This document shows, piece after piece, positions 8,666-41,339 of a stretch of 64,000 bases of DNA (the stretch's first letter is position 1; every line of letters begins with the position of its first letter). Location: NCBI RefSeq assembly GCF_026571515.1, contig NW_026861730.1, forward strand, positions 186,001 through 250,000, written 5' to 3'. Position numbers and translations under genes: made by a program. This DNA comes from Ruditapes philippinarum (lineage: Eukaryota). A model generated the notes under the pieces. That model did not search any database, was not told where the DNA came from, and saw only the letters and a program-made list of their open reading frames with translations.

Positions 8666-9314
8666 GAGTGCAAAATATCAATTGTTACTGTCTGTGAAAT
8701 TTCAGTCATTCAGTTAAACACTATTTTTTGTTGTTTTTATTTTATGATCAACTTTACAATGTCATTCAGTGAGAGAGTGAATTAATCAACAACATACCAT
8801 ACTCAGAGGGATATGTGTTTGTGTTGTTATTAATACTTGCCTCACCTGATTAAAGATGTCTTATCAATTATAAACAATGTCATTTATTTACCATAATAAA
8901 ATTATACGGGTTCCATTGTCATGTATATGTCAGTTATGACGTCATCACCATATAAGTACAATATATAATGCGCTTATGTTTTTAAAGTTTGCCGTAAAGA
9001 CAAGGCAATCCCAAATAAATTATCTGTAAAGGAAAAAACATTTCACAATTATTTACTGCTCTGTTCCTTTGTTAGTAAGTAGGGTCGTATTTAAAGTGAC
9101 ACTAAGTGAACTTGTAGTGCTTTACTGGAAAAGAGCAAAACAACAACATATTTTTTGAACAACGTTATTATCGCTAAATAGTAAATCACATTTGTATCCT
9201 GCAGCAGCCATTTAGAAATTCACGAGACTAAAAATGAATGGAAAAGCAATGAATGAATGAATGAATGAATGATATATCACAAAAACACCAACATTTTAAC
9301 ATGCATAATGATCA

Positions 9315-9938
9315 TTTTTAGCGCGACTATTCGATAAGAATAAGTAGAGCTATTGCAGTCACCCGAGCGTCGGCGTCGGCGTAACCACTTATGTTAAAGT
9401 TTTTGTAATACCTAAGTCCATTGACATATGGCTTTGAAACTTTGCACACTTGTTCACCGTCATGACCCTAACCTGTAGACAGGAGGAGGTAACTGTATCA
9501 AGTATTTTGACAGAAATACGCCCTTTTTCAACTTAGAATTTACGTTTAAATTTTTGTAATACCTCCAATATATTTAAAGTCCATTGACATATGGCTTTGA
9601 AATTTTGCACACTTGTTAACCGTCATGCCCCAAACTCTTAACAGGAGGAAGTAACTGTATCAAGCATTTCGACAGAATTATGCTCCTTTTTCGACATAGA
9701 ATTTACGTTTAAGTGCGTACCACCTCAAATATTTTCATATTTCATTGACATTTTGCTTTGAAACTAGTTGAAATTTTATACACTTCTTTGGGAGCATAAT
9801 GGGACTCTCTTCAAGGCTTATAACATGGATTTGTAAAAAAAAAATTAGCTCTCTTGTGAAAATTGTAAATTATCAAGTCTCATTTACTATATAGCACTTA
9901 GAATAGTCGTGCGTTCTGTCCTACCGACAGCTCTTGTT
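9315..9938 (+). mobile_element. HINE
   Basis: tttttagcgcgactattc ... gaatagtcgtgc IR, (GGCGTC)n, ~165-bp tandem units, 3' hairpin ctgtcctaccgacag then ctcttgtt. Confidence 0.8.
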
Positions 9939-9965
9939 TAATCTAGTAACATCCATACCTCATAC

Positions 9966-9978
9966 ATTATTATTATTA

Positions 9979-10015
<37 letters not shown>
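9966..10015. repeat. (ATT)n microsatellite
   Basis: Directly visible. Confidence 0.9.
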
Positions 10016-10016
<1 letters not shown>

Positions 10017-10110
10017 TAAAAAGCTGAATCTTACAAACACACTAAACTGAGTAAAACTTAGTATTTATTATTATAAAGTCGCCATCTGATCTGAGTTGTC
10101 ATTGTTGAGT

Positions 10111-10169
10111 ACAATACGAAAGTCATTTACAGTCTGTTTTTTACAGACTGTAAATGACTTTCGTATTGT
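10111..10169. repeat. perfect hairpin, 27-bp arms with 5-nt T loop
   Basis: acaatacgaaagtcatttacagtctgt-ttttt-acagactgtaaatgactttcgtattgt. Confidence 0.95.
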
Positions 10170-13100
10170 TACACATCTGTAACACCTTTATTGGACAATT
10201 AGGTAAATCGGCTTTAATTGACGACTTGCACCGACTCAACGACTCCAGCATATTCACTGTAGATATTTTTATGTTATAAAGTAAGTCTTAATGAAGAATC
10301 AATCTTGTTTATAGAGGACCATACAGTACAATGTGTCACACAACGCCTCATTACCGTGACGGTAATCGGATATGTTATGTCGGGGTTCGAAACCATTAAT
10401 CTTCGTTAGACTTGTTTTGTCATCTTAGTAGAAAACAAAAACAAGACATTAGTCCTGTCAACATATGTACAAACGTTTGGTATAACGTGGTTCATATAGT
10501 TCAAAGCATTTTTAAAACGTAAAGTGGTCTGGTTTAAGAAGTGTTATATAATAAATATATACATTAAATAGTTCTGTATATTAACTTTGGCATTTCATGT
10601 GAAGTATATAAAATGAATATGCTGGAGTCGTTGAGTCTTTGTAGATCGTCAATTAAAGCCAATTGACCTAGTTGTCCAATATAGGTTCAACAGATGTGTA
10701 AAAAGACTGTAAAAGGCTTTCGTATTGTACTCAACAATGGTAACATAACTCGCAAGTCACATTACCGATCAGACGGCGGCTTTATAATAATTAAAACAAA
10801 TAAGTTAAGAAATGTTATCATTATGCATGTTAAACTGTTGGTGTACACATTGAGATGATAGTTGTTTGCATTTACAGCTGAATATAACCTAGTCTTCAAC
10901 ATTTTCAATTTTGCCAATTTTTGCCGTTTTTTATTTATTTAGATTCTTATTCGACCAAAGGCTTGACTTCCTGTAAAATGTTTCAGGGAAGAACCGAATA
11001 TAACATGAATTTATTTGGTCATTTTAAAATTACAAACTGAAATATGGGAATCTCATCTGCCATTCTATAATAAACTGTAAATAAAATGTAAAGGATAGTT
11101 ATTGCCATTCTAAAAATGAACTGTAACGAAGTTAAAGATAAAACGTTCATAAGTAGTTGAATTTATATTTTCCGTTATCCTTTTATTCCTGTTTGCAATA
11201 TTTATTATGTGCTTCTGTTAATAATCCTTCCAATATTACATATGATTACAAAATTTATGAAGTCAAACGTAAAAACAAGTAATAAATTATTGTAAAATAA
11301 AAAGTGTCCCAGCTTCGAAGGGACATTATCAATATGCTTATTATTTAATTTCTATGTTTAGAAAATGATGTTGTTTCTTTGTTTTATCTACAAGAAATTA
11401 TAATGTTATTGTCATGCAAGCATTGTTAACATTTATATATGTATCGAAAACTTAGAAATTACATATACAAGTTAACCACTTTTACTTCGACTGGATATCT
11501 TTTTTAAATATAGGTTAAAGTTTATAAGTAGGTATTTACAAAATGAAATTAATTTTGTAAATACCTACTAATAAATTCTAAGTAAACATGTTACGATTCA
11601 TTTGAAATACTGCAATCCTATTGGACAAAAATAATTTCAAACACTAAATTAATTAAGATACTTCTTGTTTGTGACATTTTAGTATTATATATTTATTTAT
11701 TTGGGCGTTTGTCTATTCATTTATAAGCTCGTGAATTTCTAAATGGCTTCTTTTGCAGGATACAATTAATGTGATTTACTGTGTTGCGATAATAAAATTG
11801 TTCAAAAGTTATGTTGTTGTTTTGTTCTTTTCCAGTAAAGCACTACAAATTCACATAGTGTCAGTTAAATACCGACCTACTTACTAAAAATGGAACAGAG
11901 TATAGCAAAGGAAGCAGTAAATAATTGTGAAATGTTTTTCTCTATAGATGATTTATTTGGTTTTGCCTCGTCTTCTACGACAAACTGTGTAAAAATAAGC
12001 GCGTGATATTTTGTACTTATATTGTGATGACGTCATAACTGACATTATAATGAAAATCACGATCTTAATCATGGAAACGGAACTCGTATTTATATGTTAA
12101 TTGATATTGTTTATAATAAATAAGTCATCTTTAATCAGGTGAGGCAGGTATTTATAACATCACAAACACAACATCTCTATTAGTATGGTGTCGTTTATCC
12201 CCGGTGTTGTTGATTATTTAATTCGCTCTCTCTGAATGACATTGAAAAGTTGCATTATTATAAACAGTGAAATTGATTTCTAATAATGACAAGGCAATTA
12301 CGGGACTTTGCAAATTGACTTTATTTATATAGAGTCTACAATAGTTCTATAATTTGAAAATGATACAGGTCGATTATCAATATAAGTTGCAAAATAATCT
12401 GGTGATCAAATCAACCGACTTTTGAAGTAAATAATATGATTCATGTTTGAAGACGTTTTATATGACATTTTCGATTTCCCTAATTGCAGGTTCTTTATTT
12501 AGGTCGCCGATGTAGTAAACACATTACTTTTAGTTTAAAATACATAGAGATTTTAAGAAAGTAACATTAATATAACGTGAGTCGTTGTGTATTTTCAACA
12601 CTTCAGGTAATAATTTTACAACTGTAAAATACACTTTATGCGAGAGTTTAAATCATTAATAAAGTTTAAATAAATTAAGATGAATAAAAAATGTGTTAAG
12701 TATGAAAAATGACAAGATATTTTAAATTTGAACGTTAGTTACAGAGGTTTATGGCTACATAAAGTTTTTTTTTATGTCTTTGTACATATTCAGTTGTTTT
12801 ATACTTATTAAGTACGGCATTAGGCACATCATTTGACCTCTTAATTTTGTCCAATCATCAAGCTAGGTTGTAACACGTGAGGCTATCAACCAATCAGTAT
12901 TTACTAGGCCATTATTCTTTGTTCATAATGTTTTGCAAAAACTACCTCCTCCAACACCACTATTTTGTACATAATATCCATATGTAATATTTGACTAAAA
13001 TTATTTGTGCTTTGTTAAACATTGTCTAAATTTACTTTATTTACTTTGTGCTTTGTTAAACATTGTCATCAGTATTATGTGTTAATGTTATCATTACCAC

Positions 13101-14690
13101 CCAGATATGTTTTGCTTACTTATGTGCTTTATTTAGCACATTGAATAAAATGTTATGGACATTATGTTATGTACAGGCGCGGAGCTATTTGTGTTTACTA
13201 TTATGTTTGTCCATGGGCCCGGATTTGATCAATTAATCCATTCGATTTACAGCTAAAAATAAATCCGCATTCAAGAACTCCTTTCGATTTCTATATTGGT
13301 TTCCCCTTCGGTGATTCGCAGCATGTCATATTAATAAATGAGAACCGGAAAGCAGTTCTGCTGTACATGAATTCGAAAGCTATAAATAGCTATAAATGTT
13401 CTGATTTTTGACACTTAGGATATAAATTTGTTATTTCCCTTTTTTAGTAGTACATGAAATTATAATTTGTTACATTTTGAATAACATTTACACACAGCAT
13501 ATCAAGTATACTATTAGTGATTGAATTTGTCAATATAATGAAGATTTCAGTCTTAAGACTTAATAATTTTGCTTTTAATAATTATTCTTAATTTATATTT
13601 ATGAAATTAAATGTTTAATAATAACATGTTGATATATTTGTTGTTCTGAAATAATTAAACTTTAGTATATAAGGTTACATTTCATTGGCGTCAATTAGTA
13701 TTGCATACCACTTTGTTCTTTAAGGATATGACTGGTGACAAAGTCCGGGGTCCGTACTCGACAGCGAAAGCTGTATTTTGTGGCCTTACGATCGGATGGA
13801 CCCTCATTAAGCATAGGCTATAGATAGATGGCATCATTGATAACAGAAACTTTGATCTGCAGTTTGAACATGAAGTGTAATGTTTTTATGAATGGTTTTA
13901 AAGCAATTCAACAAAAAAGTATATTGATCTCCCAATAAATCAATTAACAATAGTTTTTATTTGTTTGGGTCGTCAGACCAAACAAATAATGGTAGCGAAA
14001 TTTCAGAGTCTAATGTTGTTAATTGCAAACGCCGAAAGTAGTCCACTTTTTTGAAGCGGTTACTTCCCTTTATATGTACACTAACGCCGAAAAATTCAGG
14101 GGAGATCACTGCGTAAAGATGGTCAAAGACAGGCGAATTAATGTTCAAGCAAAATAATTTCCGAATGGTCGAAGATTTCTAATATTGTTTTATTGTATTT
14201 TCTGATCGAAATTAAGTAAATACAAAGCGGACATTCAATCTCTGACACAGAAGTTCACAACAAACCTAACAACAAGTAGTTCTCAAAACAGCTTAAAACT
14301 AGCGATTTAAAAGAAAGAAATATTTTTATTTTGTTACAAGTATCCAACAAATAACAACGCATTCAAAGTTTAAAAATAGCGTTGGCTAATAGAATTGTCA
14401 ATAAATGCACTATCACAAATTACGCGGATGAATATGATTTTATCAATGAAAATACTATTTTTAGCGATGTCTATTACCGAATACTACACAAACCGAGTAG
14501 TGGAATATATAGATTCTACATGTCGAACTGTTTGGGCGAGAAGATATCGCTAAATTATTTACTTCAATTTCAAACAACAGGTTTATCCTGAACAAAATAC
14601 CTCGAAATTAATAAGGATAACGAACCCGAAATGCAATGGAAGTTCTAAATCTAGAATGACTTGATGTTATTCAGATGTTATATGTATAAC

Positions 14691-14775
14691 TCCTCCGTGG
14701 TGCAGGGGTAACGCGCTCCCTTCAGGAGTGAGAGGTCTGGAGTTCAAATCCAAGTCGAGGAAACTTTTTTTTTTT
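14691..14775 (+). other. degenerate tRNA-like Pol III unit followed by a T-run
   Basis: A-box-like gtggtgcagggg, B-box-like gagttcaaatcc, T11 downstream; acceptor stem imperfect. Confidence 0.5.
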
Positions 14776-15160
14776 AAATTCTTTTTTAAGTGTCTTTGTT
14801 AAGGAAGTAGCCATGATATGCAAGGATAAAGTGTGACTGTCGTAAAAAAATGAACATAAATGATTTTTTGATGCATCTCTAGTTATGCAGAATTCCGTAT
14901 GTATCAAACTCTTGTGCCTTGCAAAATGAATTATAATACATAAAAATAAACTTATACAGGAAAATGCATACAGATATACAATACGATTAAGATTGCAAAG
15001 ATCAGAAAATACCACAGAACTTGCATCCCTTTGATTCTTTATAAATATACATGCTTATAGTAAGCTCCAGGATTATTTACATCTGTGTTAAACAACAGTT
15101 AAAGTCGTTACAAGCCCTAATTTAGAATAATATGGTTTTCTTCAGGCCGTTCACATATAT

Positions 15161-15246
15161 TCACCGTGGCTGAAGGGTTTTTGCGCTCGCCTATAAAGCG
15201 AGAGGTCTGGAGTTCAAATCCCAGTAAAGGCAACTCATTTTTTTTT
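15161..15246 (+). other. second degenerate tRNA-like (tRNA-Val-like) unit followed by a T-run
   Basis: gtggctgaaggg, anticodon-like stem ctcgc-ctataaa-gcgag, gagaggtctggagttcaaatcc shared with the 14691 unit, T9 downstream. Confidence 0.5.
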
Positions 15247-17125
15247 CAAATTGTTTAAGTCAAATAAACATTGGATTGCATATCAGTGTTGCAATAAGTC
15301 TTATAGCCAATTTACTACAATTAAAACGCTGGAAAGCATTGGTGGCACTATACATATAATCTCACAACCTGCACCTTTCTTACATTCTGAGACCCAAACA
15401 AATTCAGCGCCTTCTGTGCTTTGATTTTATATATCACCAATGTCAAATAGCTTTTATATCTTTGACTCGCACGAACATGCTGTTAGTGAATTTCCTCATA
15501 CCTGCCTAAAATTCAGGTAACAGTCTTCTATTATATTGATGAATACTGTATCACCATGTAACGCGTGTATAACAAACAAAAAATCCTGATTTTGGTCTTT
15601 TTGAAATTCATCCCATTTTTTCATTCCAGAGTGTGTTCTACTTTCAGTATTGAAAGAAACCATTTTTTTTTAATTTGTCATAAAAAAATGCATGTAATAT
15701 TACTATATTATAATATTAGTCTATTAGTCCCTTTTGTTACTATTTGTTACAATTATAATAATAAAAAAAACAGACTGTGAAATTTTTATCATTTTATGTT
15801 ACTAACTACAGTAGTGACACAAACAGAACACAGTACAATCATGTCACATAACATTTACAAGTCTTGTAAGTCTTGTTTGTATTCAATGAATATACTTTCC
15901 TTACCAGGTAGGCATCAGTGAAAGCAATTTTTTATATTAAATATCTTTCCCCTCTTTTTAATTATGGACAGTGCATAAGATAAGTATAATTATGCAAAAA
16001 ATGGTTTTACAAAACATTCGGAAAAATCTACAATAGTACAATGTACTTAATCTAAATATAACATGACCTGTGCGTAGGAATAATTTGGTAAGGTATCTGT
16101 AATGAATGAGCGCATTTTTTGCGGGGATCTTCTCAATTGCAGCAACATTTGTACTTGTATATCATACATTCACCTTGCGCATAACTTAACCGTGCATTAT
16201 AGAAAACGTGTATTGCACGAAATAAACGGATCTCCCAGAAAACGTGCACATGAAATGAACGGACTTTATTCGATACATGTACATGAAATGAGCCGTCTTC
16301 AAAAAAAGATAACGATATGGACGGATCTCCCAGACAGTATGTGCATGCAAAGCATGTGCATGATAGAACACGTTCAAACAAAATGAATGAATTGCAAAGG
16401 CTTTTCGAAATGCTAGCCTGGATGAATGAGACTTATTCATAAAGTATCGACCAAAGTGAAAGTACTTTGTACAACTCCCAATAAATAGTGTTTGAAGAAT
16501 ATCTACTTCATGAATTACAATTAAATATTTCCTTAATACATTGTAGGTGTTTTCCCTGGAAAGTACAAGATAGATAAGTCAATACATCTCTAATACTAAT
16601 TCTGTTTTAACATTGGCATCAGGTGTTTCCTTTAATTTTAATTGTGACTGCCTGCTTAACATGATTAATTCAAAACAAAAACCAAATTACTAGTTGAAAT
16701 CAATATCTTTGGTATTTACAGAAATGTTCTAGCTCTTTTGAATATGTCGTGTAGTACTAGGTACACAATGACAGATAAACTGTAGTAACAGTATTTTGTT
16801 TTTGTCGTTTTTGTTGTTGTTTGGTTTTTATTTTTGTTTTTTTCCTATGTATTTAACCTAATGACATCAATGCTGTTCATTCGGTTACATCTAGTTTCGG
16901 ATAAATGTTCTCTCCGACTTATACTTCAGTCACATGATGTTTCATTTCCTTATTGATATTTGTATAAGTCTAGAGCATTATTTATAGGTAACACGTTATA
17001 ATTTAATGTCCACAACCACCCAGAAGGGTTTTGTATTAAGTTATTTATTCATCACTCTTTTCTTCATTCTGAAATAGACTAAACATATGAACGTACATAA
17101 AATAAAGTTGACATGATTAAAGATA

Positions 17126-18500
17126 TAGAGGATATTTGTTTAGTTCAGTGTAAGATCGGAATTTATCCTGTCACTTGTATCAATTTCGGCCCGATAACAA
17201 GGTGCCGTATATTTTTACTGATCTACGGCACTTGATCACGTGGTATGCATGAATGGGCACCTGTTTGCCGGACTTCTTTTCAAGAAAAAATATAATTATT
17301 ATTATAATGTTAGATTTTATGTTTGGTGGTTAAATTTGTTTTCGCCTCAGAGTTTCCAATAGAAACGTTCTTTACAGGCCGTTCCAGTGGTATGAAAAAA
17401 ACTGTCGTTAAATCTTCTGTGTGTAGAGTAACGAATTTTGAAAACGTTGATAAAACTTTGTTTGTTTATTTTATTTCACTTTATAATTTTTCGAGCGAAA
17501 TAAAAATTATTAAAAGTGAAATAAATGTAAAACTTAACTCGTTTGCGACATTAAAATAGCGTACTTGATTTGATTGTTTTGCACGTGCTGTTTGGCGCAA
17601 CATTGTGACAATTGTAACAATACTTTAAACGTCTGTACAGCGTTAACGACTGAATTAAAGATATTGGTGTTCGAATTCATTTTCTTAGTTAGACCATTTT
17701 CTTTCATTCTAGATAGTTTTCACAACAAAATTCGACAAAAAATTGTTTTTATTTATCACATTTTTCAAACAAAATGGCGCCCTCAATGTGAAAATACACA
17801 GGGAGATAATATCTATAAGAACGGCGAGTGCATTGTTGTAGAATAATGCACGCTTCGGGCCTTCTTAGTTTATATAGAAATATTTCCGATAGTGTGATTA
17901 AAGGTAGTTTGCCTAATAAAATTCTTTAAAAAAAAACGGTGATAGGATAAATAGAATAATATATTCGTGCCGTGGATGGAGAAAGTTTATCTGGCTCTGC
18001 TCCGGAATTTATTGGGTTCGCCTTCGGCTCACCCAATAAATTCCTCCGCCTCGCCAGATAAACTTTCTCCATCCACGGCACCAACCTATTATTCTCTATA
18101 TATTTCACCGAGTGGGCACCAAAAGGTTTATTTCACGAGTGGCGCAGCCACGAGTGAAATATGAACTTTTGGTGTTCACAAGGTGAAATATGTTTCGATC
18201 TTACACTAAACTAAACAAATTTTCTTTTTATTATATGCAAAGAAACGTTTTAAAATACATTAAACCTAATACTGAATGAAAAGCGCGCCAAATAATAATA
18301 CAACGTGACGTCATTTACGACGTCACGTCATTAAGTTGGTACCCAGTTCTGTGCACGCTTGTATTTCACTGAAACAACGTAAGGGGCTTAAATTCAAAAC
18401 AGTGAAATTATCAAAGTGGTAATTTCACTGTTTTAAACAAAGAAATACAAGTTTTATATCACTGATATATTTCTATAAACCACCGAAAAGCATGTAATAA
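17126..18500. mobile_element. hairpin-rich non-autonomous element inserted upstream of lectin copy 1
   Basis: Absent at the paralogous sites (~25775, ~58860). 25-bp IR 17134-17158/18196-18220 (1 mismatch). Long hairpins at 17967-18081 and 18102-18189. Confidence 0.8.
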
Positions 18501-19158
18501 ATGTTTATTACATGTTCGTGAAGTCAATCTACTTTCTCTGATGTTGTATACAATAAAGACTCTATGTCGCTATTTCCTATCGTCTAACATCTGTCCTTTC
18601 AATTCATATAATTCTTCCACCAGTTGACGTAATCTTCTAATATGCTTACCTAATATTTTCCACTGAGTTGATAAAAGAAACATATTAACAACAAAACTAA
18701 AGTGAATGTTACATCTTTAAGTTTGTTGTTTGTTTCTCGAGGAATCGTCCCTTCTCTAGATTTGTAAATAACAAATTAAATTGGAAGATAGCATTGCCAG
18801 GTTGGCATTTACGGTTATCGATTTATTCACCCTTGACTCGACTGGTCAAAAGTCAAGTTACATTTATTCATCAATAGTCATATAAATATTTTGTTTCCGT
18901 AATATAATTATTTTCTTGGTAACATTAGCAGATGCAATAACGAGATAAAGAACTTACTAATAATATTTTCATATATTCGGATAGAATTCCTCTCATTGTT
19001 AATGAGCTTATTATTGTATAGTAAAAACGTTTTGATAACAATTAAATATGAAACTCGCCAGAGAGAACAGATATACTGTTAATAACACAATGGTACAAAC
19101 TATCCAAAGAGTCGTGCGATGACAGTCGTGTATTAACAGACGTACAAGTTACATTAAG

Positions 19159-19222
19159 ATGGCAAATATATGTATGGATTACCTTATCTTATCATTTGTT
19201 CTTATTGGAACTTTTAACAATG
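19159..19222 (+). CDS. PAN/Apple + C-type lectin protein copy 1, exon 1 (signal peptide)
   Basis: MANICMDYLILSFVLIGTFNN(G), hydrophobic core, G|GTAAT donor phase 1. Conserved in copies 2 and 4. Confidence 0.8.
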
Positions 19223-20201
19223 GTAATAAGATTAAAAAATAATCTTACACTTTAACTGTGTATTTTTTTTCTGAATTATTAGATTTCAACTAGCTAGACG
19301 TTTGTCAATGTCATAAAATCATATTTGGTATTAAAATTCTTTGACACTACTTCAATATGATATTTCTTAACGTTTGGTTTACTTGTACATACAATGCTAA
19401 TATTACATTTTATAACAATAATATGGCACCACGAAGGCTGACAAAACTTTAACAATAAAACAATTCTTTGACCTTTTTTGACTGTACATAACTTTGATGT
19501 TGGACGTTCCTACATTTTATATTTGTCTCTTAGATTTTCTGGATTTGGCGACAAGAGCAATCTGGTGCAAAGTTGAACAAAATTTTCTATTTTATAAATA
19601 TTATGCTCCATCATTTTTATTTAAAATACGATCACCACAGTGAGTAAATACGCATTTTTATTTTATTATAGTCTTTTCAATTAATATGCTCTTCCCAAAC
19701 GCCGTACGTAGATACATGTATGAACTAGAGGCGTTTTTTTCCAAAATGTTACGAGTAAAACATGTTTCACTATCATACTTGTATATTAAATATAGGCCAA
19801 GATGTTTGCAAATAACTAATATTTGTATTCATTTACTAATGATTTATGGAAGGGAAGTACACTGCTTAACTCTAGCTTCTTAATTTCGACGAGATTATTT
19901 GAGAATGCGTCATTACATACTTTGACATTTTAAACGCTACATGTAGTGGTCCGATGGAACTACAATATATAGATATTTATTTAGACAGTACAGGGTTAAT
20001 TTTTGTAGGTTATTTACTATCAATACACATTTTACAAAAGAAAAAGATTTTGTTTCTACTGATTACTGTAAACAGCACATTAATTTTTGTAGTTTTATTA
20101 CTTACATAGTCCTTTAGGATTGATTTTTTAATAACGACATACTACTGTATCGAAGTTTATCGGTATAAAGAAAGCTGATTCTTTCCATTTTTTTTTCTCA
20201 G

Positions 20202-20459
20202 TTTGTTCTGAGCAGTGGTCATATTTCCATGATGGTTGTCAGACGCCGTACGGAAGGATTGGTTTGCTCTACAATCTATTTCTGTCACACTGCACAGCCG
20301 AATGCAACGCTAATACAAAATGCACGGTGTTCGGATATTCATCTTCGGACAAAACATGTTTTTTATTCGACGAAACCTTTTCGACAGCGAGCACTGAATG
20401 TTCACTAAAGACGGTCATGTACTATAAAGTTGGCGATTTTGTCGGAAGTCCGAAAAACG
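20202..20459 (+). CDS. copy 1 exon 2: PAN/Apple domain
   Basis: ttctcag acceptor, G|GTAC donor, 258 bp. Six-Cys pattern GC..HCTAECNANTKCTVFGY....KTCFLF..EC typical of PAN/Apple. Confidence 0.85.
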
Positions 20460-22017
20460 GTACATATACATATATATCAGTTGTATTGCACCCTGCATTT
20501 ATGATTTAACCACCCACTCACAAAAAACCTTAATGTCTTAGACATGGTATAGAACTTAATTTTGTAAGTTTCGAATATGTAACATGATAATGACAATTGA
20601 AAGGGGTCAGTGCAAGAAGGTACTTAAATCTAGTAAAGGATAAAATTGAGTTAGGACTTTGTGATTAAAAGAACGTTTTTTGGAATTGGAATAACCTTCC
20701 TTTGTCACTCACCTCTGTGATTTCGGTGAAAATGGTTCTTGAATAATCTAAACGAAAGTCCGGTGGTGGAGTTGGTACCTTTGTTACATTTACTCTATCC
20801 ATGTGTTTTTGATTTGAGGCAAAACTATATGAAAATGTAATTATATTTTAATTTTATGTCAATGTATTCATAAAACTTTACAACAATAATGGTTTTTTCT
20901 ATGTCTTGTCAAAATAATTTGCAGAAAAACTTATTTGTTTAAAAAATGTTACAAATATTATAAAGTGAATTTTGTGTTCATGGAGATAGAACTTTTGTGC
21001 ACATTTAACATATTAATTCCTTTTTCACATTATGCATTAAGACATTGAAGTCTTACAGATATTCTTAGAGATTGTTTTACTTTTCGAGTAAATAGAATGT
21101 ATTCACATTCTAAGATATTGAAACTATAAAGCTAAAGCTTATGTATTTCATAATATTTGTAACTTTGATCATTTTAATGTAGTCTAATGAAACTTTTTTT
21201 GTTACAGTTTCTTCACGCAATACATGTATTTTGAAATTTTCTGTGTTTGCAGTTAGCACATGAAATATTCTGAACTATTGAAAGCAAAACTTTTATGCGT
21301 AACCATTATACTTAAACTGGTCTGTATGTTAAAGCTTTGCTTCTTTCTATGAGGAATATATGATTAAAACTCATATTGTTTTTGTTTTGTTACCTGTAGT
21401 CAGTCAATTAATCAAAAATTGTATACAAAAAAAAATTGTATACAAAAAATAAAATAGTTAAAAATTGTGTAAAACACGCAACTATGGTTTCAAATATTTT
21501 TGTTTGATAACATAACTTATTAGTGAATTAAATATCAATTAAAACTAAAATTTCATACATTTTTTATAAAATGCCCCTTTTCTCAAAATAATGTTGAATA
21601 ATGTTATTTACCATCTTGCACCGATCAATTATTAAAAATCTAACCTACTTAACTATTATTTATTATTCGTATTGAACTAAAAGAATATATATTACAATAA
21701 CAACACGTCATTTTAGTAGGTTAGACTTTTTAATATTTGGTGTTTTATAACGAATTAAAACGTACGTTTTGTGCTACTGTTATTAATATTTTTTTAATTC
21801 ATTTAGTTTACAGAAAAAAAAACGGTGAAAATCATATAAAATATGTAAATGAGCAAAATACATGTATTATTTATTACATTAATGTTAAGTTTCATTGAAA
21901 CATCAATCACGCAGACGATGATGATTGTTGAAATAATGTTTCAATAAAAACAAGCACATTTTCATACCAAAGCACATTTTGACAAAAGTAGTGGACATTA
22001 ATCTGCTTTTATTGTAG

Positions 22018-22200
22018 TTGACTGTGGTAATTTCACTGGTTATACCTACGTGACGTCATTAAATAAATGTATACGCTACAAATCATCCAGTAGACTCTCA
22101 TGGAACGATGCGAAAGAAGATTGTGAAAAGGAAGGGAGTCATCTCATTTACGCGACCACAAAGGCGGTGCTTGATTACATCCAGGGTTTTCTAGAACAAC
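22018..22200 (+). CDS. copy 1 exon 3: C-type lectin domain, N-terminal half
   Basis: ttgtag acceptor, C|GTTGGT donor, 183 bp. DC..GY..KCIRY..LSWNDAKEDCEKEGSHL long-form CTLD signature. Confidence 0.9.
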
Positions 22201-22649
22201 GTTGGTGTTCTTTACGTTATATATATATTATACGTATACGTATATATTTGTTTTATTTTTTATTTAAACACTTGCTAACTTGAGCGATGGTTTCAGGTTT
22301 AAATGTACCACTGTTCTTTCTAATGGAAGATGTAAATCTTCTTTCCATGTTTCTCGATCGGGTCTGCTAACTTGATTGTGATTAACTAGTATTTTAAAAC
22401 ATTAAAAACATAAACATACTTCTTAAAAATATCAAATGGCAAAAAATAAAACGAGAACACAAGGCACACTGAAATAACAGTAATCATCTATTGGATAAAC
22501 ATTAATTTAATCTTTGTTTTAATCTCTGAATCTTGTTATTTGTTTCCACTTTAAAACAATAGTTTAACAGCTTTGCAAAAATATTTGTCCATGAAATTCT
22601 GGGGGTGTTTGCTGTTGTTGTTGTTGTTATTCTTATTTTTCGTTTACAG

Positions 22650-22903
22650 ACGATACCAAATACTGGATTGGTGGTAAGCAGTCGGCAGTTGGTTCAAATA
22701 CATTTGAATGGTTGTCTGGGGAAACAATAGATGAGTCAAATGGAGGAAACCTCTGGCTTGAAGGACGACCAGCGGTGGACAGTCCAACTGATAACTATTG
22801 TATTGAAACAAAAACTTCAAGTGATAGAAAGTCATTCGGAATATTTGACAGGCAATGTGATAATAGACATCGATTTTTCTGCGAAGTGGACATCTTCATT
22901 TAA
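22650..22903 (+). CDS. copy 1 exon 4: C-type lectin domain, C-terminal half and stop
   Basis: ttacag acceptor. YWIGG..FEW..W.EGRP..YC..FDRQC..FFCE*. Joined CDS 64+258+183+254=759 nt, 252 aa. Confidence 0.9.
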
Positions 22904-25090
22904 AAACGAATATGATATAAGATTATTTAAAAATAATTGCATGTTTAAAATATATTTGTACTTTTATTTCCTTTTCATTTTAGTTCTTGCACAATAATCT
23001 CATATGTATAAAAATAAGAACATTGAAATGTTTGCGTTTATGGAGAGACACATATTTTGTATTTTGTATTTAGTATGCGTCCAAACATTCAGACTGTGTT
23101 ATTAATGCATCATGGATTTTTTTCAATAAGATTCGGAGAAGTTCTACCTTACCGTTTCAGGACGACTTTTTATATCTTATTAATATCATAAACACATTTT
23201 CCACTGTCCGCTATACGCATTTACCGCACATACATATATAGAACATGCTTTGCAAATATTCCAAAATGTGATTACATTAATATGCTGTTTCTTATTTGTT
23301 TGGATTTTTTATTTTACAAGCGTTTTACCTTGAACGTTAGTTTTGCTTTAGTTCAAATCCAAATATTGTTTCTTCTGAGTTTTCCCTCTTTCGGATACGA
23401 TTTTGATGTGTTTTTACGTGATACTTCATATGTAGATCCGAAACCCGGAACCTGAATATGGAAATTTATAGTATTTTTATTTTCGTACTTATTGATTTAT
23501 TTTTTCAAATTGTATCCAAGATTTAGACAATTCAAGTATTATTTGATATATCTTAATTGAAAAAAAAATCGCTACTCCAGTTAAAGTGACTTGATAAGTA
23601 TTTATTTGATAATGAGACATAATTCAAAAGTGTTTCCTACTTTACGTTACTTTTGCTGTCCACAACAATTATTTGAAAATATTTAAACCTACATTTTAAA
23701 CAGCGTCATATAAGTAGTTCCGGATCACTAAAAAACCAGTATTTTTCCGTTTATTTATATTTACATACTTTTTTTAAACAGACATAATGTGATTTTTGTT
23801 CTTAAAATTTTTCATATTGTTTTAGATATTTAATATATGTGATTTTAGTGATTGGCTCCACATACTGTATGAACGTTGTCCTTAGTTGTTATTTTAAGAA
23901 AAGCTTCCATAGTTTCTGACATTCAAAAAAGCTATTTTGATTTGCAATAAATTTAAAGGCAATGAAGTGTTTATAACCCTGTGTTTAGTTATTGGTAATT
24001 GGATGAATATTTTAATACCGAGACAAAAAATACCAATGTTTTTTCGTTAAAGCGTGTGGCACATAAGCAAAATTATACTAAACCTTATTACTGCGGATAA
24101 ATACTTTAATAATAAAGTTTTTCTATAATGCATTGATCTAGTGTGTTAAATAATAGATGCATTTGTTGTTAAAATTCGCTCAAGATCTAAAGGAAACACA
24201 TACACATTGCTTGGCATGAGAGCTACGGAGATATTTAAAATACATTGAATTAATTTACACCATTGCTAGCAATAAATAATATTTTGTTTATTTTCGCTGT
24301 GATAAATACTTTATTAAACATATTTCCTTTAAACAATGTAAATATCAAAATTAACCATCAACAATCTTTACAAAGAAAATTTACGCTTAATCACTTGACA
24401 AATAGAATAATAACAGCACTCGCACACAAAATACTTTTTTGTTACAAGGACGTGAAAACCTTACAACAGTCGACCAATCGACTTTTGGAGACTTGCATGT
24501 CGACAAAATGTTAACTTTGTCTTTCGATCTCATGTTTTAGCATCGCGTGCTTCCTTTAATTCTTCTTTGTAACAAAATGTTATGTCTGATGAAAACATAT
24601 CTTATACCGTTGCTGTTAATTTAAGTGTAAAGATAGATACACTGAAATACACAAGCTCATTGAAGTCACATTGATCTGGACAGTCCTTAACTGGTTATGT
24701 TTGTTTTTGAAGTTACATGTAAAGACAAGCATATGGAAAGTTCTACTCATTACAATAATGTCATTCTTGAATTTTAAAGGAGTATTGCAAAATTAGTTGG
24801 TATTACTAAAATGTCAAAATTAAGACTTCAGTCAGAGATCTTTTTTCTATTGTCTTTGTTGTATCAATATCACACTTGTAATCAGACAGATTAAAGCACA
24901 TGACGTCAATTCGTTCGTCTAATGCTTGTGGTAAAGTTAGTTAACTGCGTTCAGCATCTCAGTTACATTATATTAACAGACAAAAATCACATACTTAGAA
25001 GAGATACATATGCTTTTAAACACTCTATCTACCCATATGTCACATACTGACATGGTCAACTCTGTAAAATATAAACGCTTGTTTTAATTC

Positions 25091-25388
25091 ATAGCAGTAG
25101 CCGACGTAGCCGTAGTAGAAGTAGTCGTAGTAGTAGTCGTAGAAGAAGTAGTAGTAGTAGTAGTAGAAGTAGTAGTAGTAGTAGTAGCAGCAGCAGCAGT
25201 ATAAGCAGTAGAAGTACAGTAGCACCAGTAGCAGTAGCAGCAGCAGCAACAGTAACAGCAGCAGCAGTAGCAGTAGCAGAAGCAGCAGCAGCTGTAGCAG
25301 GAGTAACAGTAGCAGTACCAGTAGCAGAAGTAGTAGTAGCAGTAATAGAAGCTGTAGCAGAATCAGGAGCTACAGCAACAGCAACAGC
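25091..25388. repeat. compound (AGT)n/(AGC)n microsatellite
   Basis: Directly visible; shorter paralogues at ~33878-34027 and ~41850-41992. Confidence 0.9.
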
Positions 25389-26450
25389 ATTTTATAATGA
25401 GTTTTTTTTCTGTCTCTGATAACTGTTTAAATTTTGACTCATTTTACAATTTTGGTCTTTAATCAAACCAAAAATGCGTACGGCATAATAAAAAAACATC
25501 AACAATGATAACACTGGTTTCAACAGTTATCAGAAATAGTGTTGCAATTTAAATATGAACCTTTTGTACTTACTTACATTTTTCTTAACACAACCTTAAT
25601 AAATTATACATAATAGTTTGACATACGGTACTTTTATATCTGTAGGTATATTAAATGTCCACAACCATCCAGAAAAATTTTGTATAAAGTTATTCATTCA
25701 CCACTATTTTATTAATTCTGAATTAAGCTAAACATATGAACGTACATAAAATAAAATTGACAGGATTAAAGATAGGTATATAACATGTTCGTGAAGTCAA
25801 TCTACTTTCTCTGATGTTGTATACAACAAAGACTCTATGCGGCTATTTCCTATCGTCTAACACCTGGCCATTAAATTTATATAATTCTTCCAGCAGTTGA
25901 CGTAATCTTCGAATATGCTTACCTAATATTTCCCACTGTTGATAAAAGTAATATGTTAACAACAAAAATAAAGTGAATGTTACATCTTTAAGATTGTTGT
26001 TTGTTTCCTTTACTCTCGAGGAATCATCCCTTCTCTAGTTTTTTTAATGTAAATGTGGAAATAACAAATTAAATTGGAAGATAGCATTGCCAGGTTGACA
26101 TTTACGGTTATTGATTTAAAACTTTTAGTATTCACCCTTGACTATACTGGTCAAAAGTCAAGTTACATTGATTCATTCATTGTCATATAAATATTTGTTT
26201 CCGTAAAAAAATGATTTTCTTGGAAACATTAGCAGATGAAATAAAGAGTTATTATATTTTCATATATTCGTATAGATTTTCTCTCATTGTTAATGGGTTT
26301 ATTATTGTAAAGTAAAAGTGTTTTGATAACAATTATATATGAAACTCGCCAGAGAGAACAGATATACTGTTAATAACACAATGGTACAAATTATCAAAAG
26401 AGTCGTGTGATGACAGTCGTGTATTTAATAGACGTACACTTTTCGTAAAC

Positions 26451-29400
26451 ATGGCCAAAGTGTGTATGGATTACCTCATCTTATCATTAGTTCTCATTGG
26501 AACTTTAAACAATGGTAATAAGATTAAGAAATAATCTTACTTTGGCTGTGTTTTTTTCTGAATTATTAGATTTCAACTAGCTTGACGTTGGTCAATGTCA
26601 TAAAATCACATTTGGTATTAAAATTATTTGACACTTCTTTCATTTAATATTTCTTAATTTTTGTTTTTCTAGTACATACAATGCTTATATTACATTTTAT
26701 AACAATTATGGCACCACGAAGGCTAACATAGCTTAAACAATACTTTGACCTTTTTTGACTGTACATAACTTTGATGTCGGACGTTCATAGCAACTATATT
26801 CTGCATTTTTATATTTGTCTTGTAGATTTTGTGGATTTGGCGACAAGAACAATCTGGTGCAAAGTTAAAAAAAATCTATTTATTAAATATTATGCTCTAT
26901 TACTATTTATTAAAATACGATCACATAAGTGAGTAAATGTGCATTTTAAACTATTGTAGACTTTTCAGTTAATATGGTCTTCACAAACGCCGTAAATATT
27001 AACTAGAGACGTTTTTCAAATGTAACGAACAAAAATCATCATTTTATATCAAAGGATGTTTGCAAATAACTTGAATCATATTTGTAATAATTTTCCAATG
27101 ATTTATGGAATGGAAGTACAATGCTTATCTCTAGCTTCTTAATTTTAACGAGATTATTTGAGAATTATTAAATTACACACTTTGACATTGTAAACGCTAC
27201 ATGTAGTGTAGTTTGATGGAACTACAATATTCAGATAGTTATATAGACAGAACAGTTTTAATTTTCGAAGGTAATTTAATAACAATTCACATTTCACGAA
27301 AGAAAATACTTTTGCTCCTACTGATTTCTGTAAACCACACATTAATTTTTGTAGTTTAATACTAACACAGTCCTTTAGGATTGATTTTTGTAATAACGGC
27401 AGACTACGGTATCGAAGCGTACCGGTATAAAGAAAGCTGTGTTTTTCCATTTATTTTACACAGTTTGTTCTGAGCAATGGTCATATTTCCATGATGGCTG
27501 TCAGACGCCGTACGGAAGAATTGGTTTGCTGTACAATCTATTTCTGTCACACTGCACAGCCGACTGCAACGCTTATACAAAAATGCACGGTGTTCGGATA
27601 TTCATCTTCGGACAAAACATGTTTTTTATTCGACGAAACCTTTTCGACAGCGACCACTGAATGTTCACTAAAGACGGTCATGTACTATAAAGTTGGCGAT
27701 TTTGTCGGAAGTCCGAAAAACGGTACAAATATATATCAGTTGTATTGCACCCTGCATTTATGATTTAATCACCACTCACAAAAACCCTTAATGTCTTACA
27801 CACGTATATAACTTAAATTTGTAAGTTTCGAACATGTAACATGATAATGACAATTGAAAGGGGTCAGTGCAAGAAGGTACCTAACTCTAGTATAGGATAA
27901 AATTGAGTTAGGACTTTGTGATTAAAAGAACGTTTTTTGGAATTGGAATAACCTTCCTTTGTCACTCACCTCTGTGTTTTTAAGGTGAAAATGGTTCTTG
28001 AATAATCTAAACGAAGGTCCTAAGTCCGGTGGTGGAGTTGGTACCTTTGTTACATTTACTCTATCCATGTGCTTTTGATTTGAGGCAAAACTATATGAAA
28101 AAAATATAATTATATTTTAATTTTATGTCAATGTATTCATGAAACTTTACAAAATAATGTTTTTTTCTATGTCTTGTCAAAATAATTTGCAGAAAAACTT
28201 ATTTGTTTAAAAAATGTTACAAATCTTATAATGTGTATTTTGTGTTCATGGAGATAGAACTTTTGTTGCACATTTACCATATTAATTCCTTTTTCACATT
28301 ATGCATTAAGACATTTAAGTCTTACATATATTTTTAGAGATTGTTTTACTTTTCGAGTTAATATAATGTTTTCATATTCTTAGATATTGAAACTATATAT
28401 AAAGCTAAAGCTTATGTATTTCATATTATTTTAACTTTGGTCATTTTAATGTAGTCTAATGAAACTATTTTTGTTACAGTTTCTTTACGCAATATTTTGA
28501 AATTTTCTGTGTTTGTAGTTAGCACATGAAATATTCTGAACTATTGAAAGTAAAACTTTTATTCGTAACCATTATACTTATACATTGTACTGGTTTGTAT
28601 GTTAAAGCTTTGCTTCTTTCTATGAGGAATATATGATTAAAACTCATATTTTTTTGTTTAGTTTCCTGTAGTCAGTCAATTAATTAAATTATTGATTGTC
28701 AAAAATTCATACATTTATCAACTAAAGCATGTGTAACGTAAACTATACAATTAATGGTTTGTTTGATAGGCCCTTAGATTTTTAAAACTTAATATTCATC
28801 TGCAACACATTTAGAGTAATATGATAACCTTTTATTTGATAGAAAAGTTGAAAAATATATAAAATGAAAGGTCAAAAACTTTATGCAATTGTTTCAAAGT
28901 TACAAAGGTCTTAACTCCATAGGATTTAGAACCGTTTTTGCATAAGCACATTTGATAAATATCGCTTTTCATTTCATGAAATAGTTGAAAATTGTGTAAA
29001 ACATGCAACTATGGTTTCAAATGTTTTTTTTATTTATAACATTACTTAGTAGTGAATTAAATATCATTTAAAACTAAAATTTAATAAATTTTTAATAAAA
29101 TCCCCTTTTTCTCAAAATAATGTTGAATAACGTTATGTACCATCTTGCACTGGCCAAATATTAAAAGATCTAACCTACTAAACTATTATTTATTATTCGT
29201 ATTGAACTAAAAGAATATATATTACAATAACAACACGTCATTTTAGTAGGTTAGACTTTTTAATATTTGGTGTTGTATAACGAATTAAAACGTACGTTTT
29301 GTGCTACTGTTATTAATATTTTTTTAATTCATTTAGTTTACAGAATAAAATTATACATTGAAAATCATATAAAATATGTAAATGAGCAAAATACATGTAT

Positions 29401-30604
29401 TATTTATAAAATTAATGTTAAGTTTCACTGTAACATCAACCAAGCTGACGAAATAATGTTTCATAAAAAACAAGCACATTTTTAAACCAAAGCACATTTT
29501 GACAAAAGTAGTGAACATATATATGCTTTAATTGTAGCTGACTGTGGTAATATCACTGGTTATACCTACGTGACGTCATTACATAAATGTATACGCTACA
29601 AATCCTCCAACAGACTCTCATGGAACGATGCGAAGGAAGATTGTGAAAAGGAAGGGAGCCATCTAATCTACGTGAAAACAAAGGCGGTGCTCGATTACAT
29701 CCAGGGCTTTCGAGAACAACGTTGGTGTTCTTTTTATTTATATATATGTATATTTCTTAATTTTATTTTTTATTTAAACACTTGCTAACTTGAGCGATTT
29801 TCAGATTAAAATGTTCCATTGTTCTTCCTAATGGAATATGTAAAACTTCTTTTCATGTTTCTCGGGTCTGCTAACTTGATTGTGATTAGCTAGTATTTTA
29901 AAACATTAAAAACATAAACATACTTAAATATATCAAATGGCAAAACAAAAGACTTACTGATGCTTGCACTATTAAGTGTTGAGAATTGAGTACCGCTCGT
30001 AGGGCCCAACTTTGTCCGGTGCTAGGGGGCGTGAGGGATGTTGCACCTACTCATTATCCCTCATGTACAGGCTCAATCAAACCGAGTCTGCAATTCTTAT
30101 GTTATTTTGTTGTGATTAAAGCTTCCGAGGGATCACTTTGTTTCAGATTTTTTTTCTGAAATAACATGTAACATCTATTGGATAAACATTCATTTGAATC
30201 TTTGTTTTATAAGACTCCGAATTTTGTAGTCATTTGTTTACAACTTTAAAACAATAGTTTAACAGCTTTGCAAAAATGATTGTCCATTGGCATCTTTTAC
30301 GTAAATGCTGGGGGTGTTTTTGCTATTGTTGTTGTTGTATTTTTCGTTTACAGACGATACCAAATATTGGATTGGCGGTAAGCAGTCGGCAGTTGGTTCA
30401 AATACATTTGAATGGTTGTCAGGGGAACCAATAGATGAGTCAAATGGAGGAAACCTCTGGTTGGAAGGACGACCAGCGGTGGACAGTCCAACTGATAATT
30501 ATTGTATAGAAACAAAAGCTTCAAGTGATAGAAAGTCATTCGGATTATTTGACAGGCAATGCGATTATAGACATCGATTTTTCTGCGAAGTGGACATCCT
30601 TTAA
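26451..30604 (+). pseudogene. PAN-CTLD lectin copy 2 (single +1 frameshift; pseudogene or assembly indel)
   Basis: Exons 26451-26514, 27464-27722 (259 bp instead of 258; extra A in run 27579-27583, stop at 27658-27660), 29538-29720, 30354-30604. ATG, splice sites and other exons intact. Confidence 0.75.
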
Positions 30605-31799
30605 TAGCAAATATGATATAAGATTATTTCAGAATAATTGCATGTTTAAAATATATTTGTACTTTCATTTCCTTTTTATTTCAGTTCTTGCACATTAGTC
30701 TCATATGTATAGAAATAAGAACAATGAAATGTTTGCGTTTTTCGAGAGATGCATATTTTGTACCTAGTGTGTCCAGACATTCAGACTGTGTAATAAATGC
30801 ATCATGGATTTTTTTCAATAAAATTCGGAGCATTTCTACCTTTCCGTTTCAAGACGACTTTTTATATCTCATTAATATCATAAACATATTTTTTCACTGT
30901 CCGCTATACGCATCTACCGAACATACAAAGAACATGCTTTCCAAATATTCCAAAATGTGATTACATTAATGTGCTGTTTCTTATTTGTTTACAAGCGTTT
31001 TACCTTGAACGTTTGTTTTGCTTTAGTTCAAATCCCAAATATTGTTTCTTCTGTGGATTCTCTCTTTTGGATACGATTTTGACATGATAATACATCATAT
31101 AGATTCAAAACCCGAATATGGAAATTTATAGTGTTTTTATTTTCGTATTTATTGATTTTTTTTTCTTTCAAATTTTATCCAAGTTTTAGACAATTTAAGT
31201 ATTATTTGATATATTTAATTTGTTCAAAGTCCATTGAAAAAATTACGCTGCTCCAGTTAAAGTGATTCGTTTATAGACTTGATAAGTATTTACTTGAAAT
31301 GTGCTTACCTTCCAATGAGACATTATTCAAGTGTTGTTTCTTACTTTACGTTACTTTTGCTGTCCTCAACAATTATTTAAAAATATTTAAACATGCAATT
31401 TAAACAACGTCATATAAGTAGTTTCGGATCACTCAAAAACCAGTTTTTCTCCGTTTATATATACATTGTATATATACATACAAACATAATGTGATTTTCT
31501 TTCGTAAACTTTATCGATTGTTTTAGATTTTTAATATATGTGATTTTGGTGATTGGCCACACATACTGTATGAACGTTGTCCATAGTTGTTATTTTTAGA
31601 AAAGCTTCCATAGTTTCTGACATTCAAAAAAAGCTACGTTGACTTGCAGTAAATTTAAAGGCAACGAAGTGTTTATAACCCTGTGTTTAGTTATTGTTAA
31701 TTTGATGAATATTTTACCAATGTTTTTTTACGTTAAAGCGTGTGGCACATGCACAAAATTATATTTAACCTTATCACCGCGGATAAATTCTTTGATACT

Positions 31800-31846
31800 G
31801 TTTTTAGCTCGACTATTCAAAGAATATGAAAGCTATTGTAGTTGCC

Positions 31847-31877
<31 letters not shown>

Positions 31878-32902
31878 TGCGTTGGTTAAAGTTTTTTGTA
31901 AAGTCAAATATCTCAATTATTGCTTGAGATATTCAATTGAAACTTACAATACTTATTTATAGTAACAAGGTACATCAGATTAACAAGTTGGATAACTCTG
32001 CCTACAATATTGACAGAAAAATGCCCCTTTTAACTTAGAGATTTTGGTTAAAGTTTTTTTGTAAAGTCAAATATCTCAATTATTGCTTGAGATATTCAAT
32101 TGAAATTTACAATACTTTGTTATAGTAACAATGTACATCAGTGTGCAAAATTGCATAACTCTGCCAACAATATTTGCAGAATTATTTGCCCCTTTGAAAC
32201 TTAGAATTTTTGGTTAAAGGTTAAAGGTCTTCAAAGATATTTACTTAAAACTTTACACATGTACTTAGGGTCATAATTGGAGGGTCAAAATTTTATGTCA
32301 CTGACCAAGTTCCATAACTCTATCTTGCATTAAGGCTGATTCATATCCCCTTTTCTACTTAGTCTCTTGGTTAATGTTTACATGCAAGTTTTATTTATCT
32401 CAATAACTATTAAAGATATTTATTTAAAACTTCACATATGCATTTAGAATCATAATTGTAGGTCACTGACCAAGATCCATAATTCTATCTTGCATTAAGG
32501 CTGATTTTTCTCCCCTTTTTCAACTTAGAAATTCATGGTAAAGTTTTGCTTGTTAGCTGTTATCTCCATAACCACTGAAGGGTTTGTGCCTTTTTTGGGA
32601 CAATTTTATGCATTCATAATAATAAATGCAGTGATTTACTTGATAAAACACCTTTGTACCTTTTCTGTCAATTTTATGTATTCATAGGTAATTAGTATTG
32701 TTATACTCAATAAAACACCCTTGTGACAACCTTCCGAATAGTCAAGCAAATACTGTATACTTAGACTCTCTCTAAGGCCTATAACATGAATTTATAAAAA
32801 AATAGTCCTATTGTGAACTTAGAAAATTTAACATTATCAAGGCTCTTTTACTATCAAGAACTTAGAATAGTCGAGCGTGCTGTCCTACCGACAGCTCTAG
32901 TT
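31800..32902 (+). mobile_element. HINE with (GGCGTC)n and internal tandem repeats
   Basis: tttttagctcgactattc ... gaatagtcgagcgtgctgtcctaccgacagctctagtt; ~165-bp units. Empty site in the paralogue at ~24118 (agtttttctataatgc). Confidence 0.85.
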
Positions 32903-35246: not shown

Positions 35247-35412
35247 AAAATTAATATGCATAAATCTACACTACACTAAAATGTTCAAGTCTACTTTAAA
35301 ATGCACAAGACAACATTAAAATATACAATATAAAATTAATATGCATAAATCTACACTACACTAAAATGTTCAAGTCTACTTTAAAATGCACAAGACAACA
35401 TTAAAATATACA
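35247..35412. repeat. exact ~85-bp tandem duplication
   Basis: taaaattaatatgcataaatctacactacac...aaaatataca twice; single copy in the paralogue at ~43210-43290. Confidence 0.85.
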
Positions 35413-35711
35413 TATACAATACAACATTAACAATTAACATATACCAAACAGCATAAACATATTCAAGACACCATTAACAGATACAAAATAGCATAAACAT
35501 ATACAAGACAACATTGAAATATACATGACGTTATTAACATTGACGCCTTACACCGACTCAACGACTCCAGCATATTCACTATAGATATTTTTACAGAAAA
35601 ATGCCAGAGTTAAAATACATAATTATTCGTTGGACTAGTATATCCGATTACCGTCACGGTAATGAGGCGTCTCGTGACATATTGTACTGTATAGTCCTCT
35701 ATAAAATCTAA

Positions 35712-35940
35712 AGGTTTACTGGTACGAAACCCAGGTAATCCTCGCATGTATCAGTGCTATTCACTGGGAATGTAAAAGAATCAAGGAATCTATTCAATAA
35801 GAGCTAGGGACTGGTACCCGGATTTCCTTGTATCTCATAGCTGTCTCTACAGTCTGTTGAGGTAAGGACCCTACTGTAAATAAATGCTTGCACTTTCGTA
35901 GGTTATACTTGACCGCCCGGTCTAAAGAAAATCAATCAAT
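35712..35940 (+). mobile_element. probable 5'-truncated retroposon in the palindrome spacer (also ~43775-44003)
   Basis: Locally GC-richer segment starting tactggtacgaaacccagg and ending in an (AATC)n tail. Confidence 0.4.
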
Positions 35941-40873: not shown

Positions 40874-41339
40874 TAGCGAATATGATATAAGATTGTTTCA
40901 GAATAATTGCATGTTTAAAATATATTTGTATTTTCATTTCCTTTTTATTCTTGTTCTTGCACATTAGTCTCATATGTATAAAAATAAGAACAATGAAATG
41001 TTTGCGTTTATGGAGAGACGCATATTTTGTGCTTTGTGTGCCCAAACATTCAGACTGTGTAATTAATGCATCATGGAATTTTTTTTTCAATAAAATTCGG
41101 AGAAGTTCTACCTTACCGTTTCAGGACGACTTTTTATATCTCATTAATCTAATAAACATATTTTTCACTGAAAAAAACATGCTTTGCAAATATTCCAAAA
41201 TGTGATTACATTAATATGCTGTTTCTTATTTGTTTGGATTTTTTAATTTACAAGCGTTTAACCTTGAACGTTTGTTTTGCTTTAGTTCAAATCCCAAATA
41301 TTGTTTCTTCTGTGTTTTCTCTCTTTCGTATACGATTTT

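Follow-up and report, generated by a model that had tools for sequence, protein, structure and literature searches.

Inversion breakpoints that carry inverted duplications of non-repetitive DNA have been described (Ranz et al., PMC1885836). In the accounts of fold-back priming and ODIRA inverted amplification, palindromic duplication can be primed from short inverted repeats that lie close to a break (PMC7999016, PMC4689423), and from the mechanism given there we infer that the short repeat should lie at the symmetry centre, continuous with the arms. HINEs, which belong with the Helentrons, are defined by sub-terminal inverted repeats (subTIRs) of 12–15 bp and a 3' stem-loop (PMC4067079). In this work we have analysed a stretch of 64,000 nucleotides from Ruditapes philippinarum (the window), in which one short palindrome recurs beside apparent fold-backs of a duplicated lectin gene. 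We propose that the palindrome is probably a passenger of ordinary duplication and inversion, and that the two fold-backs are the ends of one later inversion of 10272–35538.

Lectin gene units and the four copies of segment S

The window has about 31% GC and a single N gap (40084–40249), and encodes a four-exon PAN plus C-type lectin gene (Pfam PAN_1 and Lectin_C) in the following copies:

19159..22903, plus strand: gene copy 1, PAN plus C-type lectin, four exons, no stop or frameshift in tblastn
26451..30604, plus strand: gene copy 2, with a frame break in the PAN exon
40019..40873, plus strand: partial gene copy, spanning the N gap and containing a stop
55512..58216, minus strand: gene copy 4, with in-frame stops in the last exon

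The last exon matched, among longer proteins, only one of 251 aa (P0001), named 'C-type mannose receptor 2-like' at NCBI and coming from Ruditapes philippinarum, at 83%, which points to a venerid clam as the probable source. This protein matches in four exons, with 62–92% identity per exon to the copies of the window, but is identical to none of them, and may represent another paralogue, an allele or a related species.

The first-pass annotation had reported an invariant 17-mer at four places, and we found exact matches at all four, with no further match in the window at up to 3 mismatches (0.14 expected). Our analysis shows that these palindromes are parts of four paralogous copies of a non-coding segment of about 380 bp, here called S, which lies at the end of the duplicated lectin gene unit:

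10350..10366, minus strand: palindrome copy A, reversed relative to B, C and D
35647..35663, plus strand: palindrome copy B
43710..43726, plus strand: palindrome copy C, either a duplicate of B or its second haplotype
63158..63174, plus strand: palindrome copy D
10272..10653, minus strand: S copy A, bounding the reversed gene block on its outer side
35539..35705, plus strand: S copy B, about 190 bp shorter than C through an internal deletion
43413..43768, plus strand: S copy C
62991..63253, plus strand: S copy D, with an internal deletion; the sequence beyond it has no duplicate in the window
10318..10375, minus strand: run of 57–58 bp identical between A and D, containing the 31-bp block invariant in four copies (10343–10373)

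Read in one direction all four 17-mers are identical, the G/C centre reflecting orientation only. The orientation described earlier (reversed at 10.3 kb and forward in the other three) was borne out, as was the location of three copies inside spacers between long inverted arms and of copy D near the end of locus homology, where the homology between A and D stops at 63253, 87 bp from the palindrome centre. Perfect palindromes with arms of at least 8 bp number 14 in the window (10 distinct), with a mean of 6 in 20 block shuffles, and about one per 10 kb is expected by chance.

Self-BLAST aligned 10272–23067 as collinear and inverted with 63253–55342, with S included in the chain and an identity of 84.6% over 6120 columns (substitutions only). 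S occupies the same position in each collinear paralogous unit, as a segmental duplication predicts. The annotation had also stated that B and C come from one duplication and are not independent, which agrees with their 95.6% identity (substitutions only); A and D are likewise not independent, given their matching positions in the two collinear inverted units. B and C sit on opposite sides of the N gap, and a 95.6%-identical duplicate (40250–48135 versus 29806–40027) begins right after it, which may be a second haplotype joined in assembly. Since the most similar contigs from run X14, another individual, are about 3% diverged from the D region (4/163, 4/142 and 13/386), B and C themselves may be two haplotypes. 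Elsewhere in the units, 53675–55301 and 60616–62245 are only 3.3% diverged in the block compared, versus 18–21% in the adjoining parts, and recent conversion or unequal crossing-over could account for this block.

We found no mention of the 17-mer or of its 15-bp core, in either orientation, in the literature covered, most subscription journals lying outside that coverage, and a topical literature search on this locus likewise returned nothing. A scan of viral sequences with a 19-mer gave 0 matches. One metagenome match to a 20-mer (locus L001) was discarded as a chance match, having no similarity past the 20 bases.

Junctions, inverted arms and the reversed block

The first-pass annotation had placed the palindrome at every fold-back point and read it as a candidate site of recurrent breakage or recombination. 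The features needed to judge this are:

8749..10268, minus strand: left arm of apparent fold-back A, paralogue of 10602–12252, 13–16% diverged
10217..10271, plus strand: left copy of a 55-bp direct repeat, abutting the left end of the reversed block
10272..35538, plus strand: reversed block of 25.3 kb, opposite to the flanking paralogous units, with two tandem gene copies, presumably inverted
35539..35593, plus strand: right copy of the 55-bp repeat, with 3/55 differences from the left copy
43413–43467: C copy of the 55-bp repeat, with 6/55 differences from the left copy
35706..35943 (also 43769–44006), plus strand: SINE-like segment V, separating S from the right arm and bearing a B-box-like motif at 35721/43784 and a short AATC-type tail
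35944..38496, minus strand: right arm of apparent fold-back B, paralogue of the 3' flank of the gene, 13–14% diverged

In copy A the arms end at 10268 and 10602, so that their midpoint is 10435 and the palindrome lies 77 bp off it; the strand switch at 10271/10272 is 86 bp from the palindrome centre. The arms of B and C align inward to about 35272/35944 and 43237/44007 (approximate limits, given the 20-bp tandem repeats there), and the palindrome is off-centre by about 47 bp in B and about 96 bp in C, with S joining other DNA 50 and 116–305 bp from it. The palindrome is thus neither a break point nor a symmetry centre, lying 50–305 bp from the junctions and 47–96 bp from the centres, and its flanks are not the arms. 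The nearest junctions, at 50, 86–87, 116 and 305 bp, reveal no fixed exchange position of the kind that site-specific recombination requires. An exchange between two palindrome copies would centre both junctions on the palindrome, which was not seen.

It could still be argued that a hairpin or cruciform at the palindrome breaks the DNA or stalls forks and primes fold-back synthesis, repeatedly creating inverted duplications. Both strand switches fall in or beside S, within 86–305 bp of the palindrome, palindromic duplication primed by short inverted repeats near a break is documented (PMC7999016, PMC4689423), and in run X7 one contig joins opposite strands once more close to S (62935 to 63234), which would represent either an allele of the A junction with a deletion or an independent event. 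This explanation is nevertheless very unlikely, and is largely refuted by position, because the palindrome sits off-centre inside a spacer of 330–770 bp. Moreover, its stem is only 7 bp, the experimental primers described in PMC7999016 were longer repeats of 42 bp and 79 bp, palindromes of this kind arise by chance at the rate given above, and the folding of 101-nt windows around it is not stronger than that of shuffled sequences (z from −0.95 to +0.36). The same comparison gave no support for a longer hairpin there. Nothing in our data shows recurrent palindrome-directed breakage. Seven of the 13 mapped duplication junctions are more than 1.6 kb from any copy, and the six within 305 bp of one reduce to about three distinct breakpoints after merging duplicates.

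The 55-bp repeat bears on the age of the junctions. The left arm of A closes with the 55 bp that open S in B and C, and comparison of the five copies of this overlap gave 3 differences between A-left and B, 6 between A-left and C, and 3 between B and C, versus 12–15 in the other 7 pairs. The probability of 3/55 is 0.0008–0.013 and that of 6/55 is 0.03–0.18, the C copy not being significant against a 16.5% background (0.18). The arms are far more diverged. The three upstream paralogues are equidistant (16.0, 16.3 and 16.4%), the A arms being 16.0% apart and 16.3–16.4% from D, so that they are not sisters, although they may have arisen simultaneously; for the 3'-flank arms the divergence is 12.8–14.2%. 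With arms at about 13–16% and a junction repeat at 3/55, the repeat appears to be the younger of the two, an order that speaks against new fold-backs. Judging from these sequence comparisons, both strand switches probably mark the limits of a single inversion that turned round an already existing unit at a later time.

We therefore set out the following history as a reconstruction, its order of events being the simplest reading without loss of DNA. A unit of about 15–25 kb would have been amplified in tandem, with a boundary about 90 bp beyond the palindrome, so that the units ended in S, giving paralogues that are now 13–20% diverged. The S of one unit would then have been locally reversed, with 55 bp duplicated at one breakpoint, as happens when breaks are staggered or templates are briefly switched. 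The reversed S would next have undergone homologous recombination with the S of the following unit, flipping the 25-kb block that separated the two, and in this way S may on one occasion have provided the homology for an inversion. The outcome would be head-to-head and tail-to-tail junctions between already diverged paralogues, with S in each spacer and the 55-bp duplication turned into direct repeats; more tandem copying, deletions and repeat insertions would have followed. Within S, A and C differ at 7/95 positions near the palindrome versus 57/232 in the remainder, as a conversion tract of an age similar to that of the 55-bp repeat would.

The same map would be given by one complex template-switch event or by a cut-and-reinsert event. 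The former is the chief alternative. If one complex replication event, with multiple template switches near a break in S, had produced the reversed block along with the re-copied 55-bp segment and the S insert, an exit at the end of the 55-bp segment and a return 55 bp behind would fit, as do the similar identities of arms and paralogues (84.6–87.0%) and the few bases of possible microhomology seen by eye at the junctions. Such an event predicts, however, 55-bp repeats as old as the arms, and the 3/55 differences, set against 12–15/55 for the other pairs, make it unlikely; even then the palindrome would not be the switch point. The passenger reading is the one that we prefer, since S holds the same position in collinear units, is low in copy (see below), carries a palindrome that is off every junction and adjoins a young 55-bp repeat. 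Against this reading stand the dating on 55 bp, with P = 0.18 for the C copy, the clustering of 6/13 junctions near the palindrome and the extra X7 joint near S.

Other short inverted sequences were noted around these junctions. The ends of the reversed block (10272–10285 and 35526–35539) form a short imperfect inverted repeat, by eye about 11/13 bases, as would result from a cut through the middle of a small palindrome. Near-perfect palindromes of 59 bp (10111–10169) and 67 bp (11515–11581) occur where paralogues differ by an indel, and are possible products of short template switches. An 18-bp palindrome at 35948–35965 and 44011–44028, beside segment V, marks the inner end of the arm.

Copy number and conservation of segment S

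What is the nature of S? As a proxy for copy number we aligned three DNA contig sets to 62780–64000 (copy D) at 80% likeness, a limit that more diverged relics would escape and a summed depth that is no copy number in itself. Summed contig depth over S was 4–45 in run X1, 117–865 in X14 and 131–991 in X7, and the single contigs listed over S had depths of about 3–8, 52–106 and 48–172 respectively. The SINE-like repeat that ends next to S at 62867 reached 2e5–5.5e6, about four orders of magnitude above it. S is consequently not a high-copy dispersed repeat, its depth being about 1e4-fold below that of its neighbour in the three DNA runs, and the values fit a low-copy sequence with at most a dozen or so haplotype copies.

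This low depth weighs against S being a relic of a dispersed element (a Helentron or HINE end, a MITE or a tRNA-SINE), for which one could cite a short hairpin near an end, reminiscent of the HINE 3' stem-loop (PMC4067079), and the B-box of copy A. The scan for subTIRs detected the pair at 9321–9332/9901–9912 in a HINE-like element of the window (9321–9912), used as a positive control, but no such pair framing S in copies A, C or D. The B-box-like GGTTCGAAACC at 10384–10394, which the first-pass annotation had called perfect, is indeed so in copy A, but only there; it has 1 mismatch in C, and D has no match within one mismatch. ARAGORN found no tRNA and Rfam gave no match in S, and no A-box was seen by eye, as a tRNA-derived SINE or Pol III gene would have. 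We regard a dispersed relic as highly improbable.

The annotation had further suggested that S brackets the gene units like terminal inverted repeats and may be the terminus of a gene-carrying fold-back element. It is true that a reversed S at 10.3 kb and a forward S at 35.6 kb bracket two gene copies, and that the 55-bp direct repeat flanks the block. The outer ends are nonetheless unequal by 36 bp (10272 versus the equivalent of 10308 at 35705) and do not form precise terminal inverted repeats. Candidate target-site duplications (TSDs) at six terminus pairs were at background (4–6 bp in 5/6, mode 5), the sole 9-bp match lying inside S itself, and the 37 ORFs of at least 90 aa include none of transposase size. 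Together with the low copy of S, these data make a fold-back transposon scarcely credible. A repeat of 55 bp is also far longer than the TSDs made by transposases.

Several true repeats do occur in the window. Two HINE-like elements (9313–9940 and 31801–32902) have a T-rich start, 12-bp sub-terminal inverted repeats (9321–9332/9901–9912), a short 3' hairpin and internal 163-bp tandem repeats; that at 9313–9940 interrupts the left arm of fold-back A. The SINE-like repeat at 62637–62867 (minus strand), which is present in D and absent from A, has a B-box at 62843–62853 and very high copy, with the depth in DNA runs given above, and is abundant in an RNA run; it may resemble Meta-type SINEs. Segment V may be a SINE as well, apparently 5'-truncated. 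A 174-bp self-inverted element at 17937–18110 is MITE-like and 80% self-complementary. The stretch 63518–64000, beyond copy D, shows patchy moderate depth, up to about 100 times that of single contigs, and some RNA reads, and would be a mid-copy repeat or reflect AT-rich matches.

An excess of conservation in S is present, but it spans the 31-bp block rather than the 17 bp. All four copies share an invariant stretch of 31 bp, which grows to 45 bp for the pair A and C and to 57–58 bp between A and D, and the 17-mer is not singled out from its flanks. Among 93 non-coding windows of 100 columns, those over the core rank 1 and 2 (92 and 91 matches; median 78), so that conservation does exceed that of the neighbouring duplicated DNA; the best exon windows have 94 matches. 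The A–D run of 57 bp is the longest in the 6120 aligned columns, exons included (simulated P 0.03–0.15), and a purely neutral passenger explains it only marginally. A 33-bp run invariant in three lineages has a simulated P of about 0.005–0.07 within S and of 0.07–0.29 across about 2660 columns. The excess is marginal once the post hoc choice of the feature is allowed for.

A core of about 100–150 bp thus appears better conserved than other non-coding DNA, through conversion, weak selection on a putative regulatory element, or both, with conversion accounting for some of it. We tentatively consider it possible that selection keeps the core as a candidate cis-regulatory element, a palindromic protein-binding site 5–9 kb upstream of the lectin gene; this would be compatible with the passenger history. 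The rank of the core windows and the 33-bp run point in this direction. Copies A, C and D do have an open frame across 100 columns, yet a coding exon was rejected, since the variable sites are spread 5/5/5 by codon position. In one mRNA run depth over S was below 1, in a stretch that excludes the lectin exons. On the other side, runs of 31 and 30 also occur in another non-coding three-copy block, the P value rises over the wider set of columns, the feature was chosen after the fact, the core also persists where S lies downstream of the gene and next to a disrupted gene copy, and conversion can imitate conservation. It is quite unlikely that the core is both a selected protein-bound element and a recombination hot spot, which would have set the boundary of the lectin unit, given the 25-kb inversion its exchange point and still be yielding opposite-strand junctions such as that of X7, shuffling an immune-gene cluster.

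Taken as a whole, the first-pass observation was partly confirmed and its interpretation partly supported, and neither of the two outcomes that the annotation had named as refuting it was obtained. The palindrome and S are real, locus-restricted and mostly ordinary, S having probably been used once as homology for an inversion.

Comparison with known systems

This locus is a clear example of how an inversion in a tandem gene array yields apparent fold-backs whose spacers share one sequence, a picture easily mistaken for a recombination site or for the ends of a transposon. One candidate regulatory element of a clam lectin cluster is also marked here, and the finding would matter more only if the core were a recurrent recombination hot spot for immune-gene clusters.

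With the HINE or DINE-1-like non-autonomous Helentrons, as described in PMC4067079, S shares a short palindrome within some tens of bases of the end of homology. It differs from them in being low in copy and in having neither subTIRs nor T-rich insertion boundaries, and the HINE-like elements elsewhere in the window carry a hairpin unlike the 17-bp palindrome. The likeness to fold-back priming and ODIRA (PMC7999016, PMC4689423) lies in the long inverted arms with a spacer, the short palindrome nearby and the amplified genes; here, by contrast, the palindrome is off both junction and centre, and the arms seem older than the junction repeat. Closest are inversions by staggered breaks (PMC1885836) and ectopic recombination between inverted paralogues, in which, as here, a short breakpoint duplication of locus-specific DNA is found and breakpoint regions are reused. 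Compared with the staggered-break inversions of that report, the 55 bp of the clam locus flank the block as direct repeats, an arrangement that calls for a template switch or one further step, and the rearrangement lies in a tandem gene array, where its breakpoints look like giant imperfect palindromes.
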